Sequence record: SRR20825019_163
DNA: 55,391 nt
Reading direction: 5' to 3' (one strand)
Each line of letters starts with the position of its first letter. Positions within the stretch are counted from its first letter, which is position 1. Positions 3,285 to 36,386 of this stretch are shown here, piece after piece. The notes under the pieces are model-generated. The model worked only from the letters and a program-made list of their open reading frames with translations. It was not told the origin of the DNA and made no database searches. A program made the position numbers and the translations under genes.

Positions 3285-3371
3285 GGTCTGCCCGCACCGG
3301 CGCGTATCATAATGAGAACGCATTTTGCCACAACAGTCAGTCGCGCGACCTAAAGTGCCGAGAGGAAACCT

Positions 3372-4433
3372 ATGCCCTTCAAGTTAATGGCGGCTGCCAT
3401 AATGATATGTGCGGCCTTTGCGCCAGCCCATGCCAACACCACAATGGATGAACTTGTCGAGGCGGCAACGCAGGGCGGCTATGAAAACATCACCAGCATA
3501 TTGGTTGCGAAAGACGGCAAGGTGCTTGCGGAGCATTATTTTGGCGGTCGCGATGCAGACACGCTTCACAACACCCGGTCTGTCACCAAAAGCCTGACAA
3601 GCATGGCGGTTGGCGCGGCGATCTATCAGGGTGCGCTGCTTGACGAGCACGAACGTGTTTTTCAATTTTTCGGTGACGTGGGACCGCATGACAATATGTC
3701 TGATCTCAAGCGCGTGATTACCGTCCGTGATTTGATGACCATGTCGTCTGCGCTCGCGTGTAACGACAATGACCCAGCCTCGCCGGGTTATGAAGACAAG
3801 ATGCACGAACGCGCAAACTGGACGGAGTTTGTACTCAATCTGCCCACCATGGAAGGCTATGCGCGCAATGAGGGCGGTTTTGGCCCCTTTCGCTACTGCA
3901 CCGCAGGCAGCTTCCTGATCGGACAACTGCTTGAACGTGCCATGGGGTTGAGCGTGGACGAGTTTGCCGATGACGCCCTTTTTGGACCGCTCGGCATCAC
4001 TCGCTATGAATGGTATCGCTCCCCATCTGCCGAAGAGCAAACAGGCGGTGGTTTGCTGCTTTCAACCCGCAGCCTGTGGAAGGTTGCGGAACTGGTGCGC
4101 GCGGGCGGCATGTGGCACGGCAGGCGGTTGTTGCCAAAAGGCTGGACAAGCGCGATGACCAGCCCGCAGGTAAGCGTGGATGAAACCACGTCATACGGTT
4201 ACCTGTGGTGGGTGGGTGAGTTTAAAAGCGCCACCACAAGCGCTGCGTACCCGGCCTATTATATGGCGGGCAACGGCGGCAATAAGGTTGTGGTGATTCC
4301 GAGCCTGAAAATGGTGACGGTTATCACGTCCACAAATTACAACACGCGCGGCATGCACGCACAAACCACTGAGATGCTGGAGCGCTATATCCTGCCGGCC
4401 TTTGAACGAGGCGCGGTGCATCAGGGGCGATAA
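3372..4433 (+). CDS. Secreted serine hydrolase, beta-lactamase class C/CubicO family
   Basis: Signal peptide, SVTK (SxxK), LMTMSS, YGYLWW, GNGGN. Confidence 0.9.
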   Translation: MPFKLMAAAIMICAAFAPAHANTTMDELVEAATQGGYENITSILVAKDGKVLAEHYFGGRDADTLHNTRSVTKSLTSMAVGAAIYQGALLDEHERVFQFFGDVGPHDNMSDLKRVITVRDLMTMSSALACNDNDPASPGYEDKMHERANWTEFVLNLPTMEGYARNEGGFGPFRYCTAGSFLIGQLLERAMGLSVDEFADDALFGPLGITRYEWYRSPSAEEQTGGGLLLSTRSLWKVAELVRAGGMWHGRRLLPKGWTSAMTSPQVSVDETTSYGYLWWVGEFKSATTSAAYPAYYMAGNGGNKVVVIPSLKMVTVITSTNYNTRGMHAQTTEMLERYILPAFERGAVHQGR

Positions 4434-29883: not shown

Positions 29884-29987
29884 ATTGAGTGTTTCCTCAA
29901 AAGTTCCTCGCTGGCCCCTTATTGGGGCTCTTTACCCGCTACCGGCATGTGTCCTCCTAAGTCACACCGGTAGCGGGTTTTCTTTTC
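29884..29987 (+). ncRNA. Candidate sRNA of about 100 nt with three UCCUC motifs
   Basis: Three hairpins. The last is a 12-bp perfect stem (29934-29945 with 29967-29978) with UCCUCC in the loop and a U-rich tail. Confidence 0.6.
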
Positions 29988-30103
29988 AAAAATATGAGGG
30001 AAGACAGCACACTCTTTGTCCCATACCCAGGGGGGTGCGAAATTGTGCACCTTGTCGGAGCTTAGGGGCTAGGGCATCCGGCAAACCGCACGCGGGGAGA
30101 GAA

Positions 30104-30520
30104 ATGACAGGCGGCAACATACGCGCCCGCATCCATGCGATGCTGGCAATGCTGGAATCTGGCGAATTTTTACAAACATTTGATCAGTTTTATCGGGCCG
30201 ATGCCCGGTTTTTTGAAAACGAATATCTATTCGCAGAAAGCAGACACGAGGCGCGCGAACGCCAAGCCTCGTTCCTGAACGGGTGCAGCAGCTTTGTGGG
30301 GGATATCGAGCTGGTGCACGCGGATGTCGGGCGCCGCATCGCGGTTTTTCATAACCGGAGCCGGTATGAACACCCGGACTATGGCGCGGGCCAGGTGAAC
30401 GGTGTGCATGTGGCCTATTGGCAGGACGACCTGATCGTGCGGGAGGAATATTTCTCCGGCAAGCGGGTGGATGAGGTTTTGTCTTTCTGGCGGCTTGTGG
30501 GGCGTTCTTCAACGCAGTGA
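30104..30520 (+). CDS. SnoaL/NTF2-like protein
   Basis: F..FY..DA.F.EN and W..DLIVREEYF patterns, GGGGAGAG RBS before the ATG at 30104. Confidence 0.8.
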   Translation: MTGGNIRARIHAMLAMLESGEFLQTFDQFYRADARFFENEYLFAESRHEARERQASFLNGCSSFVGDIELVHADVGRRIAVFHNRSRYEHPDYGAGQVNGVHVAYWQDDLIVREEYFSGKRVDEVLSFWRLVGRSSTQ

Positions 30521-30612: not shown

Positions 30613-30933
30613 ATGAATAAAAGAATTTCGCTGATGTACCAAGACCCCAGATACAGGCTGTTAGGTCTGGCGGTGATCTTTTTCATGCTTGAATCATATA
30701 CTCTCGGCGCAGGAAACTTCATTTTAGGTTTGGGAGTGGCAGTCATTATATCTTACTTGGCCCACAAGTCGGCGCTTTGTCCTAGCTGCCGTCGGTTTAT
30801 GGGAGAAGGAAACACCTATAGATGGGTGCTTAAGTTTTTTGAGCCAGAGTGCCCTCATTGCCGCTATGTATACTGTCGGGGGGAAATGGGGCACGGTTCG
30901 TCTAATGGGGCCTGCAACAGTAGCCATGACTAG
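30613..30933 (+). CDS. Small membrane protein with a CxxC...CxxC zinc ribbon (lower GC)
   Basis: Two hydrophobic segments followed by CPSC and CPHC. Confidence 0.6.
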   Translation: MNKRISLMYQDPRYRLLGLAVIFFMLESYTLGAGNFILGLGVAVIISYLAHKSALCPSCRRFMGEGNTYRWVLKFFEPECPHCRYVYCRGEMGHGSSNGACNSSHD

Positions 30934-30998: not shown

Positions 30999-31901
30999 CT
31001 ACCCGTGGTGGTGCATCACGTCTTTGATGACGTTGCCAAGCGTTTCAAACGTTGCAGCGCGGGGGTTGGTTTTACGCCATATCAGCCCGATGGTGCGGGT
31101 CGGGATCATGTCTTTGAAGCTGACAATATCAACTCGCGCCTTGTCGGCGAGGCCAGCGTCAACCGCCATGCCCGGCAACAGGGTGATGCCGTGGCCTGCC
31201 GCAACCATCTGGATGATGGTGCCAAGGCTTGTGCCTGCCATCTCGCGCCGTGCACCACGCCCCACTAGCTGGCAGGCCTCAAGCGCATGGTCCCTCAGGC
31301 AATGCCCTTCCTCAAGCAGCATCAGGCGGCTTTCATCAAGCTCGGTGGTGTTGATGCTCTCGCCCGGCGCCTGCCCGTGCGGGTAGGCCACCATGAAGGG
31401 GTCATGAAACAGCGGCATCTCCGCCACGTCACCGCAGGCATAGGGAAGCGCAAACAGCACAAGGTCCAGCTCGCCAGAGCGCACAAGCTCGCAAAGCTCT
31501 GCCGATTTGTCTTCGCGCAAGTGCAGTTCCAGGTCAGGCAGCCTGTCATGAATGGCAGGCATGATTTTGGGCAACAGGAACGGCGCGATGGTGGGGATGA
31601 TGCCGAGGCGCACGATACCCTTCAAAGGGTCCTTCGCGGCAGATGCCATGTCGGTCAGGTCATCCACGTCATTGAGGATAACCTGCGCGCGGCGCACCAC
31701 CTCTTCCCCGAGTGCCGTGAACATCACGGTCCTTTTGGTGCGTTCCACAAGCTGTGTGCCGAGAAGGCTTTCAAGCTCCTGCAGGCCTGCGGAAAGGGTG
31801 GACTGGGTCACATGGCTGGCGTCTGCCGCTTTACCAAAATGATTGGTGCGGTGCAGTGCCACAAGGTAGCGCAATTGCTTGAGGGTAGGAGGAAAGCTCA
31901 T
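30999..31901 (-). CDS. oxyR: Hydrogen-peroxide-inducible genes activator OxyR (LysR family)
   Basis: LysR HTH (QSTLS..LQELE), GIIPTIAPFLLP, LLEEGHCLRDHALEAC with both redox Cys, TSLGTIIQMV. Confidence 0.93.
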   Translation of the reverse strand: MSFPPTLKQLRYLVALHRTNHFGKAADASHVTQSTLSAGLQELESLLGTQLVERTKRTVMFTALGEEVVRRAQVILNDVDDLTDMASAAKDPLKGIVRLGIIPTIAPFLLPKIMPAIHDRLPDLELHLREDKSAELCELVRSGELDLVLFALPYACGDVAEMPLFHDPFMVAYPHGQAPGESINTTELDESRLMLLEEGHCLRDHALEACQLVGRGARREMAGTSLGTIIQMVAAGHGITLLPGMAVDAGLADKARVDIVSFKDMIPTRTIGLIWRKTNPRAATFETLGNVIKDVMHHHG

Positions 31902-31965
31902 CGATTATCCCGATCACAGAATTCACTTCTATTTGTTGGATCGATGGTAATCATTCGGCGATAGT
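31900..31965 (+). promoter_or_regulatory. OxyR site overlapping the oxyR start, plus a divergent promoter
   Basis: ATCG-N7-CGAT-N7-TTCA-N7-TTGT abutting a -35 TTGGAT, an 18-nt spacer and a -10 GATAGT. Confidence 0.6.
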
Positions 31966-31970
31966 CATTC

Positions 31971-32299
31971 AACAGGAATTCACCGGCAATGCTTCCTCCC
32001 CCAAGGCATTGCCCCGTGCTTCGGCCTGTAACGATCGTGCATTGGTCCCCCTTTGCGCGGTTCGCGGTGACCAAACCGGCAACCCGATCCCCTTTGAGGT
32101 CATGTGCCTCATTGGAATGCCCAAGGGATATCTATCCGGGCTGGTCACCGCGATGCAAATTCAGAAGGGATTGTGGCGTTCGCAAAGCCTTCGACCAAAA
32201 ATCAGCCCGCTGCCCGATTCTCGTCACAATTGGGCGGTCTGATACAAGCGGCCTCAAAGGTGCGAGATTTTCGCGCTCTTTCGGGGCCGCTTTCTGTTT
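31971..32299 (+). ncRNA. Candidate multi-hairpin ncRNA of about 330 nt, divergent from oxyR (oxyS-like position)
   Basis: About six successive stems, loops CCUCCCCCA and UUGGUCCCCCUU, a perfect 12-bp stem (32062-32073 with 32142-32153) and a terminator (32246-32292) with a U-rich tail. No credible ORF. Confidence 0.6.
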
Positions 32300-32400
32300 G
32301 TATTGTCCCATAGAGTTTACGCGTTCCGTACCGCTACATATGGCGTTCTCGGTGCAGGCTATCGGTAAATCTGGTGATGGGGCTGAGGTGAGCAGTAGGC

Positions 32401-32516
32401 AAAAAAATGGCCGGGTAAATACCCGGCCCGAGTCACGACAGCGAGGATAGTGCGGCGGCAGTCACGCACACCGCAATAGGAGTGAGCACGAACGAGTCGT
32501 GCCCTCTCGCCTGACT
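32401..32516 (-). ncRNA. Candidate structured sRNA, or 3' element of the tad transcript, with an intrinsic terminator
   Basis: A multibranched fold (32431-32516) followed on the minus strand by the stem GGCCGGGT/ACCCGGCC and U7. Confidence 0.45.
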
Positions 32517-32741
32517 AAGAAACCAAATAACGGCCTTCTGGTCAATGCTTGTCTGATCACATTCCGCCAAACACCTGAAAAACAGCCAAAAAATCCCGTT
32601 GCAGTGCAATAAAAAGCATGAATTTGGGGCGTCGGTTATAGAACCTTTTACTGTAAAAAACCGTCAGTGGTCACACACGTCGTAGGTGATTCGCGACGCT
32701 TTAATGACAAAAGGCTCAATTTTTGCCGATGAAAGCGTCCG

Positions 32742-33722
32742 CTACTTGCCGATAAAGTCGTCCGCTACTTTACAAGCGGCTGGTCCGATCAAGACAACAA
32801 AGAGCGTGGGCAAGATAAAGAGGATAAGCGGTACTGTCAGTGTGGCAGGAAGTCGCGCGGCTTTTTCTTCCGCTTTCATCAGCCGTTCGTTCCTGAACTC
32901 GGCGGACAAAACCCGGAGCGAAGACGCAAGCGGTGTGCCGTAGCGTTCGCTTTGAATAAGCGTGGTAACCACCCCCCTGAGCGCGGGCAGGTCTACCCGA
33001 TCTGAGAGATTGATAAGCGCCTGGCGCCGCTCTGGCAGGAAACCAAGCTCAATGGCCGCAAGCGAGAACTCGTCTGCCAGCTCGGGCGACGCCCGGCCCA
33101 GTTCCTTTGCGACCCTACCCAATGCACTATCAAGCGTCAGGCCTGCTTCAGCGCACACAACCAGAAGGTCGAGCGCGTCAGGTAGCGATTTACGGATCAG
33201 GTCTGTACGTTTTTGTTTCACATTGGTGATGTAAATATCTGGCAGCTTCAGGCCGAGGAAGACCGCAACAACCGAATAGACAGGATACATCTGCTCATGC
33301 GTGGGCATGTATCTGAACCCATAGAAGAGTATCACCGCGATCAGGCCCACCAGCAGCGGCAGGGTGAGCCGCGCGACCTGATAGATCACCACGGCATCTG
33401 ACGACCTGTACCCGGCCTGCAACAGGCTTGCGGATACTTTGGCAGTTTGTTCCTTCTGCAGGAGCTGCAGCTTGTCTGCCAGCGCTCGCATGCCGCTAAC
33501 ACCGTCTACCTTACGCACGGGTGAGCGGCGCTTGGAGGTGGTCATCAGCCCGGCTTTGAGGGAATCACGCCGGTCCTGCAGCGATTTCACCCGACCCTTC
33601 ATGGGGTCACGCACCAGCGCGGTTTGGTAAACCGCCACCATCACAAGAAGGGCAACAGCACCCGCCGCGAAGGAGATAAGATCGATGATCGGTATGCCGA
33701 TGATATTTTCAATCTCATTCAT
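32742..33722 (-). CDS. tadC: Tad pilus platform protein TadC (CpaH)
   Basis: LPDALDLLVVCAEAG, QSERYGTP, EEKAARLP. Confidence 0.94.
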   Translation of the reverse strand: MNEIENIIGIPIIDLISFAAGAVALLVMVAVYQTALVRDPMKGRVKSLQDRRDSLKAGLMTTSKRRSPVRKVDGVSGMRALADKLQLLQKEQTAKVSASLLQAGYRSSDAVVIYQVARLTLPLLVGLIAVILFYGFRYMPTHEQMYPVYSVVAVFLGLKLPDIYITNVKQKRTDLIRKSLPDALDLLVVCAEAGLTLDSALGRVAKELGRASPELADEFSLAAIELGFLPERRQALINLSDRVDLPALRGVVTTLIQSERYGTPLASSLRVLSAEFRNERLMKAEEKAARLPATLTVPLILFILPTLFVVLIGPAACKVADDFIGK

Positions 33723-33724
33723 GG

Positions 33725-34714
33725 CTATACCTCAAACTTGATCATGCGGGACATGATGAAAATGCCCAGTGACATCCATATGAGCGCGCCAATACCCGCC
33801 ATGATCGCCTTTGGGTTGGTAAAGAGGATGATGCCGTAATCATAGTTCATCGTCATGATGGCGCCGAGCATGATGAACGGCAGAAGGCCGACAATCCAGG
33901 CGCTTGCCTTGGCTTCGGACGACATGGCTTTCACCTTCAATTTCATGGCCTGCCGCTGGCGCAGGATGTTGGAGAGGTTGCCAAGGGTCTCGCCCAGGTT
34001 ACCGCCGGTTTCCCGCTGCACCACGAGCGAGATCACAAAAAACTTGAAGTCTGCGGTGTCCAGCCGGTCTGCGGTTTCCCAAAGTGCTTCCTCAAGCTGT
34101 TTGCCGAGGCGCATGGCGTCTGTGATCTTGCGGAACTCAACGCCCGTGGGTTCCGGCAGTTCCGTTGCCACGTTGGCGATGCATTCGTTCACCGGCAGGC
34201 CTGATTTGAGGCCACGCACCATCAGGTCCATCGCTTCCGGGAACTGTTTGGTAAACTTGTCCTTGCGGGCGGCCATACGGTTTGAAACCCACACATGCGG
34301 CAGGCCAATGCCTGCGATAACACCAATGGCCAGCGCGAGCATCACCCCGAAACCTGCAAGGAAAAGCGTGAGCGCCGAGAAGGCCGCGAGCCCGAGGCAA
34401 ATGGTGGCGTAGCGCGACAGTTCCATCGCGAGGCCAGCCTGTCCAAGGCGGTTTTTGATCTGGTCACGTCGGGGCAGCAGGTCCGAGAGCATACCGGCAA
34501 GCCCGGTTTGTTCCTGATTGACCCGGATCGACCGGCTGCCTTCGCCCTTCAGGATAGTTTTCTGGTCAAAGCGGGCTTTGAAACGCTCAAGCTTGGCGCG
34601 GGTTTCCTTGCGGCCCTTGCTTAGGGTGTTTGAAAGAACGATCATCACGATCAGCAAAACAAACACGGCACCGCCGCCCGCGAGAAGGATGATGTCAAGG
34701 TTTGTATCACCCAT
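33725..34714 (-). CDS. tadB: Tad pilus platform protein TadB (CpaG)
   Basis: FPEAMDLMVRGLKSG, QRETGGNL, AMSSEAKASA. Confidence 0.94.
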   Translation of the reverse strand: MGDTNLDIILLAGGGAVFVLLIVMIVLSNTLSKGRKETRAKLERFKARFDQKTILKGEGSRSIRVNQEQTGLAGMLSDLLPRRDQIKNRLGQAGLAMELSRYATICLGLAAFSALTLFLAGFGVMLALAIGVIAGIGLPHVWVSNRMAARKDKFTKQFPEAMDLMVRGLKSGLPVNECIANVATELPEPTGVEFRKITDAMRLGKQLEEALWETADRLDTADFKFFVISLVVQRETGGNLGETLGNLSNILRQRQAMKLKVKAMSSEAKASAWIVGLLPFIMLGAIMTMNYDYGIILFTNPKAIMAGIGALIWMSLGIFIMSRMIKFEV

Positions 34715-36386
34715 TCATGGCCTCCATCAGCGCGCGTTCCAGCCCGAAATATTCTGCCTTGGTGAGGAAGTGTGGCCTCACGCCTGTTGAGTTGAAGCTG
34801 CCAACCAGACGGCCGCTTTCATCCTCGCCGGTAAATTCAAATTTGAACAGGTCCTGCGTGGTGATCACGTCGCCTTCCATGCCTACAACCTCGGTGACAT
34901 GGGTGGTGCGGCGGCCACCGTCGCGCATGCGCTGTACCTGCACAATCAGGTCAAGAGACGCTGATACCTGCTCACGGATAGCTTTGGCGGGCAAATGCAG
35001 CCCCGCCATGTTGACCATATTCTCCAGCCGGGTCAGCGCCTCACGCGGCCTGTTGGCGTGGATGGTGCCCATGGAGCCGTCGTGGCCCGTGTTCATGGCT
35101 TGCAGCATGTCAATTGCTTCACCGCCCCTGATCTCACCGAGGATGATACGGTCTGGCCGCATACGAAGGGCGTTTTTCACCAAGTCACGCATGGTAACCT
35201 CGCCGCCGCCCTCAAGGTTTGCGGGGCGGGTCTCGAGGCGCACCACATGGGGCTGCTGCAGTTGCAGCTCAGCCGCATCCTCGATGGTGACAACGCGTTC
35301 GCCCTTGTCAATCATGCGGGAAAGTGCGTTCAGCATCGTGGTTTTACCGGACCCTGTACCGCCTGAGATAAGGATATTGAGACGGCAGGCGCCTGCAATT
35401 TTCAATAACTTCGCGAGAGGCGGTGTGATGGAGCCAAACTCGAGCATCTTGTCGAGGGTGATCTTGTCTTTGGTGAACTTCCGTATGGAGATAGACGCAC
35501 CATCAATGGCCAGCGGCGGTGCAATAACGTTCACGCGGCTACCGTCTGCAAGGCGTGCGTCACAGATGGGCGAGCTTTCATCCACGCGCCGCCCCACGGC
35601 GGTCACGATACGCTGCGCCACGTTCATCAAATGCTGATTGTCACGGAAGTGTACGTCCGTCAGGCTGATGCGGCCTTTTTGCTCCACATAAACCTGGTTG
35701 GGGCCGTTGACCATGATGTCTGAGATGGTGTCGTCCGCCAGCAAGGGCTCAAGCGGGCCAAGGCCCAGCATGTCGTCAAGGAGCAGGGACACAAGGTCAC
35801 GTTGTTCCGTGAGGTTCAGGTTGATCTTTTCCTGAACCAAGAGTTCACCCACCACTTCACCAACCTGGTCGGCCAGTTCAGGGCGCGGCAGGTCTGCCGC
35901 TGCCGTGGGGTCGATGTGCTCCATCAGGAGGACCTGAATACGGTCGCGAGCCTCAAACAGCGTCTTTTTGTTGGCGTCCTGCTTCTTCGGTGTCGAGGCC
36001 GAGCTGTCGCCGATAGGGCCGATGTTCTCTTCCGCTTCATTGAGCAGATAGGTCTCAAGATCCTTCTGTTCCTGCGGGCTGAGGGTGCCGTTTTCCTCTT
36101 CCAGAATGCCGACGATCATGGAACCGATTTTTTTGACCACTTCGCCTTTGGTGGCCATGCGCAGCTCATCTGCAGTGAAGTGATCCTTGAGCCGCTCGTC
36201 ACCAATTTCTGCGATACGATCGATGAAATCGGTGGGGGCTGATTGTTCATTGGCCGGGCGTGGGGAGAGAGCTTGCTGGGGGGCGCCTATAAGCGGCTTG
36301 GGAACGGCAGCAGTGCTGCCCCGGCCAAAGCTTCCGCCCGCCCGTTGTGGTCCTTGCCGTTTTTTTCCAAAGCCTGTCGGTTTCAT
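34707..36386 (-). CDS. cpaF: Tad pilus assembly ATPase CpaF/TadA with an extended N-terminus
   Basis: GLGPLEPLL, Walker A GGTGSGKTT, IEDAAEL, LRMRPDRIILGE, MNTGH. Confidence 0.96.
   Translation of the reverse strand: MKPTGFGKKRQGPQRAGGSFGRGSTAAVPKPLIGAPQQALSPRPANEQSAPTDFIDRIAEIGDERLKDHFTADELRMATKGEVVKKIGSMIVGILEEENGTLSPQEQKDLETYLLNEAEENIGPIGDSSASTPKKQDANKKTLFEARDRIQVLLMEHIDPTAAADLPRPELADQVGEVVGELLVQEKINLNLTEQRDLVSLLLDDMLGLGPLEPLLADDTISDIMVNGPNQVYVEQKGRISLTDVHFRDNQHLMNVAQRIVTAVGRRVDESSPICDARLADGSRVNVIAPPLAIDGASISIRKFTKDKITLDKMLEFGSITPPLAKLLKIAGACRLNILISGGTGSGKTTMLNALSRMIDKGERVVTIEDAAELQLQQPHVVRLETRPANLEGGGEVTMRDLVKNALRMRPDRIILGEIRGGEAIDMLQAMNTGHDGSMGTIHANRPREALTRLENMVNMAGLHLPAKAIREQVSASLDLIVQVQRMRDGGRRTTHVTEVVGMEGDVITTQDLFKFEFTGEDESGRLVGSFNSTGVRPHFLTKAEYFGLERALMEAMNG

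Follow-up and report, generated by a model that had tools for sequence, protein, structure and literature searches.

A predicted structured RNA divergent from oxyR in Kordiimonas and its relationship to the ahpCD transcription unit

A 55,391-nucleotide (nt) stretch of DNA from sequence record SRR20825019_163 (hereafter the window, meaning the whole stretch), which comes from marine Kordiimonas (Alphaproteobacteria), was found to encode a predicted structured RNA of about 330 nt at 31971-32299 on the plus strand, divergent from an oxyR-like gene. The RNA is non-coding, its helices are under selection, and its last ~100 nt are, as judged by sequence comparison, homologous to the 3' end of an ahpCD transcription unit present in related species. 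We propose that this is a non-coding RNA gene on an ahpCD-type promoter and that its product is a peroxide- and OxyR-controlled, trans-acting small RNA (sRNA), a functional analogue of OxyS; we attach about even confidence to this reading.

The loci used for comparison were obtained by an OxyR protein scan that took one genome per species and covered only the surroundings of oxyR, giving 45 loci. L001-L021 are of the Kordiimonas/Kordiimonadaceae type (OxyR 73-99% identical), with L021 almost identical to the window, and the remaining 24 loci (OxyR 32-51% identical) are mostly from Gammaproteobacteria. L006, L008, and L010 are K. aestuarii JCM 17742, K. gwangyangensis DSM 19435, and K. laminariae 5E331, respectively.

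Fold of the RNA

The plus strand of 31971-32299 folded with a minimum free energy (MFE) of -148.4 kcal/mol, compared with -111.3 ± 5.9 kcal/mol for 100 dinucleotide shuffles, none of which was equally stable (z-score of -6.27). The z-score of the minus strand was only -2.70, with two of 100 shuffles as stable, and 12 of the 108 predicted pairs were G.U pairs, which become A.C mismatches if read on the opposite strand; the RNA was therefore assigned to the plus strand. The 5' end is placed at 31971-31974 and the 3' end at about 32296-32304. The following elements were predicted:

31971..32299, plus strand: predicted non-coding RNA (fold z-score, compensatory change relative to L001, no Rfam match, no conserved frame)
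31985..32013, plus strand: hairpin 1, with a stem of 10 base pairs (bp; 31985-31994/32004-32013) and the loop CCUCCCCCA (31995-32003), from the MFE fold
32034..32061, plus strand: hairpin 3 (32034-32041/32054-32061), with the apical region UUGGUCCCCCUU (32042-32053), from the MFE fold
32062..32153, plus strand: central branched domain with an outer helix of 12+4 bp, from the MFE fold
32164..32192, plus strand: hairpin 5 (32164-32175/32181-32192), from the MFE fold
32201..32243, plus strand: motif hairpin with the loop CUCGUCAC, carrying the 20-nt motif GCCCGATTCTCGTCACAATT at 32212-32231, from the MFE fold
32247..32304, plus strand: intrinsic terminator, a 19-bp hairpin (32247-32291) followed by the U-rich tail UUCUGUUUG, from the MFE fold and a terminator scan

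The central domain is built on a perfect 12-bp stem (32062-32073/32142-32153), lengthened by CCGG/CCGG and enclosing nested helices. A small helix at 32015-32019/32028-32033 is the sole one that lacks comparative support. A preliminary description of this stretch had proposed a highly structured RNA divergent from oxyR, which the fold statistics, the selection on the helices, and the gene context bear out. It had also listed the stems and suggested RNAfold as a check; every listed helix was reproduced in the fold with the z-score given above, and the terminator it had named was found as the hairpin and U-rich tail listed here.

In the same fold, the first seven bases of the RNA, AACAGGA (31971-31977), pair with the terminator tail UUCUGUU (32292-32298). 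This pairing also appears in the folds of L001 and L002 and, with G.U changes, in that of L006, and AACAG and CUGUU are also present in the ahpC leader and the terminator tail of L010. No such pairing was seen on reading the L008 and L009 sequences by eye, and the pairing may be a chance match of an A-rich start with a U-rich tail.

Selection on the helices

The helices of the RNA are under selection. Among the 45 loci, blastn matched the interval end to end only in L021 (99.3%) and L001 (84.2%), and a short piece of it in L006, L002, L008, and L012. The full-length form is known from only two diverged sequences. L001, folded on its own, showed the same architecture with a z-score of -6.31. 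When the helices of the window and L001 were compared arm by arm, using ungapped segments anchored on flanking identity, 87 of the 108 pairs were mappable and 84 of these were still paired in L001: 66 unchanged, 14 altered on both sides, and four with single changes. One double change and two single changes broke the pairing. Under a null of random substitution, 1.57 ± 1.15 pairs were kept after double change (maximum of 7; none of 20000 simulations reached 14), and 61.6 ± 2.8 pairs were kept in total, compared with the 84 observed.

The 14 double changes were distributed over five helices. Hairpin 1 had four of them and one single change, with all 10 pairs retained and its loop kept in L001 as UCUCCCCC. 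Hairpin 3 had two and one broken pair, with its apical 12 nt unchanged; the outer helix of the central domain had three and one broken pair; hairpin 5 had four, with its internal loop closed in L001; and the terminator had one. The loops CYUCCCCC and UUGGUCCCCCUU were invariant between the window and L001 while their stems were rewritten. The 21 pairs that were not comparable belong to the weak helix at 32015-32033 and to the inner central domain, which is rearranged in L001 through an 11-nt deletion. An unguided MAFFT alignment of the same two sequences, in which one arm of hairpin 1 was misplaced, gave 11 double changes that kept the pairing vs. four that broke it, together with six single changes that kept it, 13 that broke it, and eight gapped pairs.

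Non-coding status

A 153-amino acid (aa) open reading frame (ORF) at 31989-32450 overlaps the RNA. The preliminary description had recognized no protein family in the overlapping ORFs, and this held: the 153-aa ORF had no Pfam family, and no frame was conserved. Indels of 3, 1, 1, 11, and 1 nt between the window and L001 put the upstream part of the ORF in another frame, the same residues are found in L001 only where they arise from conserved 3' nucleotides, and the ORF reads through the terminator into a convergent sRNA candidate (32401-32515, minus strand; described at the end). Across 19 sequences, no frame through the 20-nt motif had a consistent start or stop; nine of the 19 had no start codon ahead of the motif in frame B, and the motif's own YGA was a TGA stop in 10 of the 19 in frame A.

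The Infernal search against Rfam that the preliminary description had suggested returned no family for the RNA. No match reached the gathering score in the whole window, and none was obtained at E ≤ 10 on either strand of 31960-32310; the five sub-threshold matches in 31800-32850 were all on the minus strand at 32394-32552. A repeat or mobile element was considered and rejected, as no repeat family touched the RNA region in a scan of the window, blastn of the RNA against the window returned only itself and its own inverted arms, and no match was found among plasmids. In the literature searched, judged by titles, nothing was found on regulatory RNAs of Kordiimonas.

The 3' core and its link to ahpCD

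A single occurrence of the 20-nt pattern GCCYNAWTNTNGWCACAWTT was found in each of 17 of the 45 loci. These 17 loci are all of the Kordiimonas type, and each has the pattern placed between oxyR and the convergent sRNA candidate, oriented as in the window. With the stricter pattern GCCYGATTNTNGTCACAATT and up to three mismatches, it was found once in the window, at 32212-32231, against 0.08 occurrences expected by chance; the version in L010 has two mismatches. The motif is followed by an A/U-rich stretch and then by a hairpin with a U-rich tail. Two of the loci, L009 and L010, carry ahpC and ahpD, as recognized with tblastn and NCBIfam. In L009, ahpD ends in a TGA stop codon that coincides with the YGA of the motif, and in L010 the motif lies ~55 nt past ahpD.

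A covariance model, R1, was built from L009, L010, L002, L006, and L008 only, without the window group. With E-values that are rough owing to a shortened calibration, as are those of the model R2 below, R1 matched the window at 32202-32304 (53.9 bits, E of 2.8e-10), L001 (E of 2.3e-10), and L021 (E of 1.3e-9), as well as the syntenic site in 11 more loci (E of 2e-4 to 0.66). Only four non-syntenic matches were obtained in 438,629 bases on both strands (E of 0.19-0.83). Because R1, which includes the ahpD-linked L009 and L010, matches the window in this way, the last ~100 nt of the RNA and the 3' end of the ahpCD transcription unit are taken, by sequence comparison, to be homologous; such 3' homology is what an sRNA derived from a peroxidase mRNA would show. 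In the R1 alignment, which is fitted to the model, the terminator stem was paired in 95.8% of the cells, compared with 76.0% after shuffling, and seven of its 10 pairs were changed on both sides. In addition to the window, 18 of the 21 related loci have this 3' core; the three that lack it, L004, L013, and L015, have a rearranged neighborhood.

When the oxyR-to-sRNA intervals of L009 and L010 were compared with 31902-32400 of the window by blastn, similarity was found in the promoter and leader (E of 0.006 and 9e-4), the motif (E of 8e-4), and half of the terminator (E of 0.12), and everything else was at chance level. The preliminary description, sound on the structured RNA, had missed the promoter and 3' ~100 nt shared with ahpCD and the 20-nt motif. 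The motif was also considered as a promoter and rejected, since no -35/-10 or sigma-54 spacing was found to fit when it was read by eye.

The RNA may accordingly be described in two layers, a family-wide 3' core of ~100 nt (32202-32304), which would be the 3' end of the ahpCD operon where ahpCD is present, and a clade-specific structured 5' extension of ~230 nt. In structured form, the extension was found only in the window, L021, L001, L002, L006, and L008. Of these, just the window, L021, and L001 have the C-rich hairpins, and L002 and L006 have one UCCCCCU loop, on the apical hairpin of the central domain. A second covariance model, R2, which was based on the window group's central domain, gave weak syntenic matches in L006 (E of 0.05) and L002 (E of 0.19) and none elsewhere up to an E of 5; MAFFT aligned the same stretch of the central domain in these two loci. 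The long and medium forms had z-scores of -6.27 (window), -6.31 (L001), -4.49 (L002), -3.93 (L006), and -4.86 (L008), and those of the short forms (105-136 nt) were +0.28 (L003), +1.11 (L007), -2.07 (L012), -0.73 (L016), and -0.61 (L017). The motif is mostly unpaired in the short forms; in the long and medium forms, its center lies in a hairpin loop that is closed in differing registers between species.

Predicted promoter and candidate OxyR operator

The RNA is preceded by the divergent regulator gene and by promoter-like and operator-like elements, as follows:

30999..31901, minus strand: oxyR-like gene for a LysR-type regulator of 300 aa, the divergent neighbor (Pfam HTH_1 and LysR_substrate, NCBIfam, PDB)
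31936..31965, plus strand: promoter-like elements, -35 TTGGAT (31936-31941), 18-nt spacer, and -10 GATAGT (31960-31965), from conservation
31929..31964, no strand assigned: candidate OxyR operator, a 36-bp imperfect dyad CTAT-N7-ATCG-N7-TCAT-N6-ATAG, read from the sequence

The best NCBIfam match of the regulator was OxyR, at 240.7 bits, which is under the equivalog cut-off of 329 bits (next family, 150.6). Of its 17 PDB matches at E ≤ 1e-20, the best was 7l4s, annotated as OxyR (1e-66), and the others were named OxyR, hydrogen-peroxide-inducible genes activator, or LysR-family regulator. The protein has Cys201 and Cys210, nine residues apart, which we take to be the same spacing as that of C199 and C208 in E. 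coli OxyR.

The intergenic region spans 840 nt (31902-32741), and its first part, 31902-31985, is almost invariant between the window and L001. The pattern TTGGAT-N18-CATNNT, with CAAC 6-8 nt further on, was present in all nine aligned loci, including the ahpC-bearing L009 and L010, and GTTGGAT and the downstream CAA were invariant in this alignment. On the basis of this pattern, the 5' end of the RNA was placed at about 31971-31974, ~7 nt past the promoter and ~70 nt from the oxyR start codon. In L009 and L010, the same promoter block is followed by a leader of roughly 50-70 nt and then by ahpC.

OxyR would bind at the dyad at 31929-31964, whose size is in line with the palindromes of ~37 bp that were taken as OxyR sites by Krieger et al. 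2022 (PMC8825220). L010 has two tandem promoter/operator-like blocks between oxyR and ahpC (3764-4000, minus strand), of which the oxyR-proximal one resembles the type found in L012-L019 and the second resembles the TTGGAT type of the window.

Proposed function and its alternatives

OxyS is described by Krieger et al. 2022 (PMC8825220) as derived from the last codons, the 3' untranslated region (UTR), and the terminator of a peroxidase gene divergent from oxyR. In the same respect, relatives have a peroxidase operon at this site, and its stop-codon region, 3' UTR, and terminator are the counterpart of the 3' part of the window RNA. Known here from the sequence are further likenesses, namely the divergent position with the conserved 36-bp dyad as a presumed operator between the two genes, the non-coding nature of the RNA, and its intrinsic terminator. 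The two RNAs differ in that no homology of sequence or structure was found (zero Rfam matches), in the host, which is alphaproteobacterial here and enterobacterial for OxyS, and in the peroxidase of the relatives, which is AhpC-AhpD and not a peroxiredoxin-glutaredoxin hybrid. OxyS is 109 nt long, whereas the window RNA measures ~330 nt with its large clade-specific structured 5' extension. CpxQ and SroC are examples of sRNAs derived from 3' UTRs. The motif of L009 and L010 resembles these in lying directly upstream of the mRNA terminator, in the typical seed-plus-terminator layout of sRNAs that arise by cleavage or transcription at the 3' ends of mRNAs; the window differs from them in having no parental coding sequence, the element being the tail of a stand-alone non-coding transcript.

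As the OxyS-like function is envisaged, transcription from the conserved promoter would be controlled by OxyR and induced by peroxide, as suggested by the position of the gene and the promoter shared with ahpC. The RNA could base-pair with its targets in trans, using the conserved 20-nt motif, with its seed-plus-terminator layout, and/or the C-rich loops; in the window, L021, and L001, these loops resemble anti-Shine-Dalgarno (anti-SD) sequences and might bind G-rich ribosome-binding sites. Processing might release the 3' core.

Several observations weigh against this proposal. Elsewhere in the 55-kb window, no complement of the motif was found with up to three mismatches, and the pairing of the motif or of the RNA with the convergent sRNA candidate was no better than that of shuffles (duplex z-scores of -1.45 to +0.58 for 19 sequences and -1.09 to +0.34 for four). 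The C-rich loops are young, being limited to the window, L021, and L001, apart from the single UCCCCCU loop of L002 and L006, and the five short predicted transcripts, from more distant species, are not unusually structured, so the core does not need the elaborate fold. The middle 223 nt (31986-32208) have no significant similarity to the ahpCD coding sequence; colinear alignment gave z-scores of 1.51 for L009 (14 of 200 shuffles as good) and -0.18 for L010. Conservation alone was used to place the promoter, OxyR site, and transcription start, and a generic sigma-70 scan did not flag the promoter at 31936-31965. The helix-wise mapping onto L001 was picked after both folds had been viewed, which biases it towards structure. 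Finally, simple parsimony on a tree of OxyR proteins implies two gains of ahpCD, compared with about 8-9 losses by our own count.

C-rich loop words occurred elsewhere in the window at chance-level frequency. A tblastn search with AhpC and AhpD of L009 against the intergenic region of the window gave a best E of 0.032, which, for an 840-nt database and a word size of 2, is at chance level; on this result and the colinear DNA alignment, a degraded ahpCD pseudogene was rejected.

The alternative that survives best is that the RNA is a relic of, or a flank to, an ahpCD operon, made up of its promoter, leader, 3' UTR, and terminator, and transcribed with no role in trans; the sole reason for keeping its hairpins would then be RNA stability, termination, or insulation of the divergent and convergent units. 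Such a relic would account for both ends being common to the ahpCD unit of L009 and L010, for a middle that varies highly in length and sequence among clades, for the unstructured short forms, and for target searches that found none. We nevertheless consider it unlikely, as 14 compensatory double changes over five helices, together with invariant loops, exceed what a terminator or spacer needs, and as species with OxyR proteins of only 73-90% identity still have the 20-nt non-coding motif in common.

It is less probable still that the RNA is a sponge that titrates an RNA-binding protein through repeated loops, or that it acts in cis on oxyR by overlapping 5' ends or promoter interference. The proximity of the RNA to the oxyR start codon (~70 nt) and the similar, repeated C-rich loops of invariant sequence would fit these roles, but only two of the loops are alike and no specific support for either was found.

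The preliminary description had linked the RNA to the alphaproteobacterial cuckoo RNAs (alpha-r14, CcsR), and this kinship was not upheld; we regard membership in that anti-SD sRNA family as very improbable. According to PMC4615179, cuckoo RNAs consist of 2-4 adjacent simple hairpins in a row, each 24-50 nt long with a loop of 9-27 nt that carries CCUCCUCCC, and have no multiloop; the family is alphaproteobacterial and tied to oxidative stress, and its loops are conserved on stems that differ by compensatory change. The window RNA is similar in these last respects and in having two adjacent hairpins (hairpins 1 and 3, of 29 and 28 nt) that fit the cuckoo size limits and carry C-rich, anti-SD-like loops of 9-12 nt, one with CCUCC. 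Its loops are, however, CCUCCCCCA and UUGGUCCCCCUU, and CCUCCUCCC was not seen in either of them or elsewhere on reading the RNA sequence. C-rich loops are carried by only two of the seven supported helices and are absent from most relatives, and the RNA has in addition a multibranch domain (32062-32153), which cuckoo RNAs lack, and four further helices. The promoter context also differs: according to PMC8034643 and PMC4615179, CcsR1-4 (RSs0680a-d) share an RpoHI/HII promoter and a transcript with a small DUF1127 gene that lies ahead of them, whereas the upstream neighbor here is the divergent oxyR, with no small ORF with a Pfam family and no DUF1127 gene upstream. No curated covariance model matched the RNA even at E ≤ 10, although the cuckoo-type content of Rfam 15 was not checked. 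The RNA belongs to neither the OxyS nor the cuckoo/CcsR family.

A protein product, either of the 153-aa ORF or of a small peptide read across the motif, is scarcely credible: long open frames do exist in the window, L001, and L006, and in one frame the motif would encode the hydrophobic stretch [PL]-I-x-V-T-I, with an NTN codon, but the missing Pfam family, the frame-shifting indels, the inconsistent starts and stops, and the overlap of the ORF with the terminator and the convergent sRNA candidate speak against it.

Evolutionary history

The ahpCD-bearing L009 and L010 do not form a sister pair in the tree of OxyR proteins (26 rows): L009 is placed with L004 (87/73), and L010 falls in a 100/98 clade with L013 and L015, inside a 99/96 clade of ten. 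The divergence of AhpC (80.8% identity between L009 and L010) and AhpD (69.9%) is like that of the adjacent OxyR (75.8%) and therefore fits their co-inheritance. Also against gain of ahpCD, both copies are flanked by a common promoter/leader start and a common 3' core, and the promoter-to-core sequence varies in length and content by clade, as would be expected after independent deletions. In spite of the parsimony count, an ancestral ahpCD with repeated loss thus appears somewhat likelier than gain, and under either history the core belongs to the oxyR-divergent transcription unit.

A broader scenario, which we put forward tentatively as possible but doubtful, is a second, independent OxyS route in Alphaproteobacteria whose intermediates are still alive. 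The seed-plus-terminator 3' core of an OxyR-controlled ahpCD mRNA would have become a stand-alone, OxyR-dependent sRNA after loss of the peroxidase, possibly repeatedly, and one clade would then have accreted hairpin modules, including anti-SD-like loops, to form a 330-nt multi-domain regulator. The origin of new bacterial sRNAs and their entry into existing regulons is an open question, for which OxyS is the one worked peroxide example. The same genomic logic would here be found in a distant class, with related species showing ahpCD with the core as its 3' UTR (L009 and L010), short stand-alone forms, and long structured forms. As the carriers of L006 and L008 are cultured strains, the proposal is testable, and, if true, it would provide the first regulatory RNA for the order Kordiimonadales.

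Among the 24 non-Kordiimonas loci, only L034 matched AhpC of L009 at E ≤ 1e-3; this locus, from Psychrosphaera algicola, carries a peroxiredoxin (3303-3836, minus strand) that is 33% identical to L009 AhpC and divergent from oxyR.

Convergent sRNA candidate and neighboring genes

The convergent sRNA candidate at 32401-32515 on the minus strand lies downstream of tadC, has a conserved upstream block reaching to about 32633, and was missed in the preliminary description. It is laid out as three hairpins, the invariant single strand CUAUCCUCGCUGUCGUGACUC, and a terminator (32428-32409). Besides the window, 18 of the 21 Kordiimonas-type loci have it, nine of its 30 predicted pairs show compensatory double changes, and it is better conserved than the RNA at 31971-32299. 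Its Rfam matches were sub-threshold only, to SorY (33.5 bits; gathering score of 111) and SorX (29.5 bits; gathering score of 46.6).

On the other side of the RNA, two ORFs with no Pfam or NCBIfam family lie between a double-GNAT acetyltransferase gene and oxyR (29885-30520 and 30613-30933, both on the plus strand), and the 106-aa product of the second contains two CxxC pairs as well as hydrophobic stretches. Beyond the intergenic region, tadC-, tadB-, and tadA-like genes of a tad/cpa-type pilus occupy 32742-36386 on the minus strand, and their products are two T2SSF proteins and a T2SSE ATPase.

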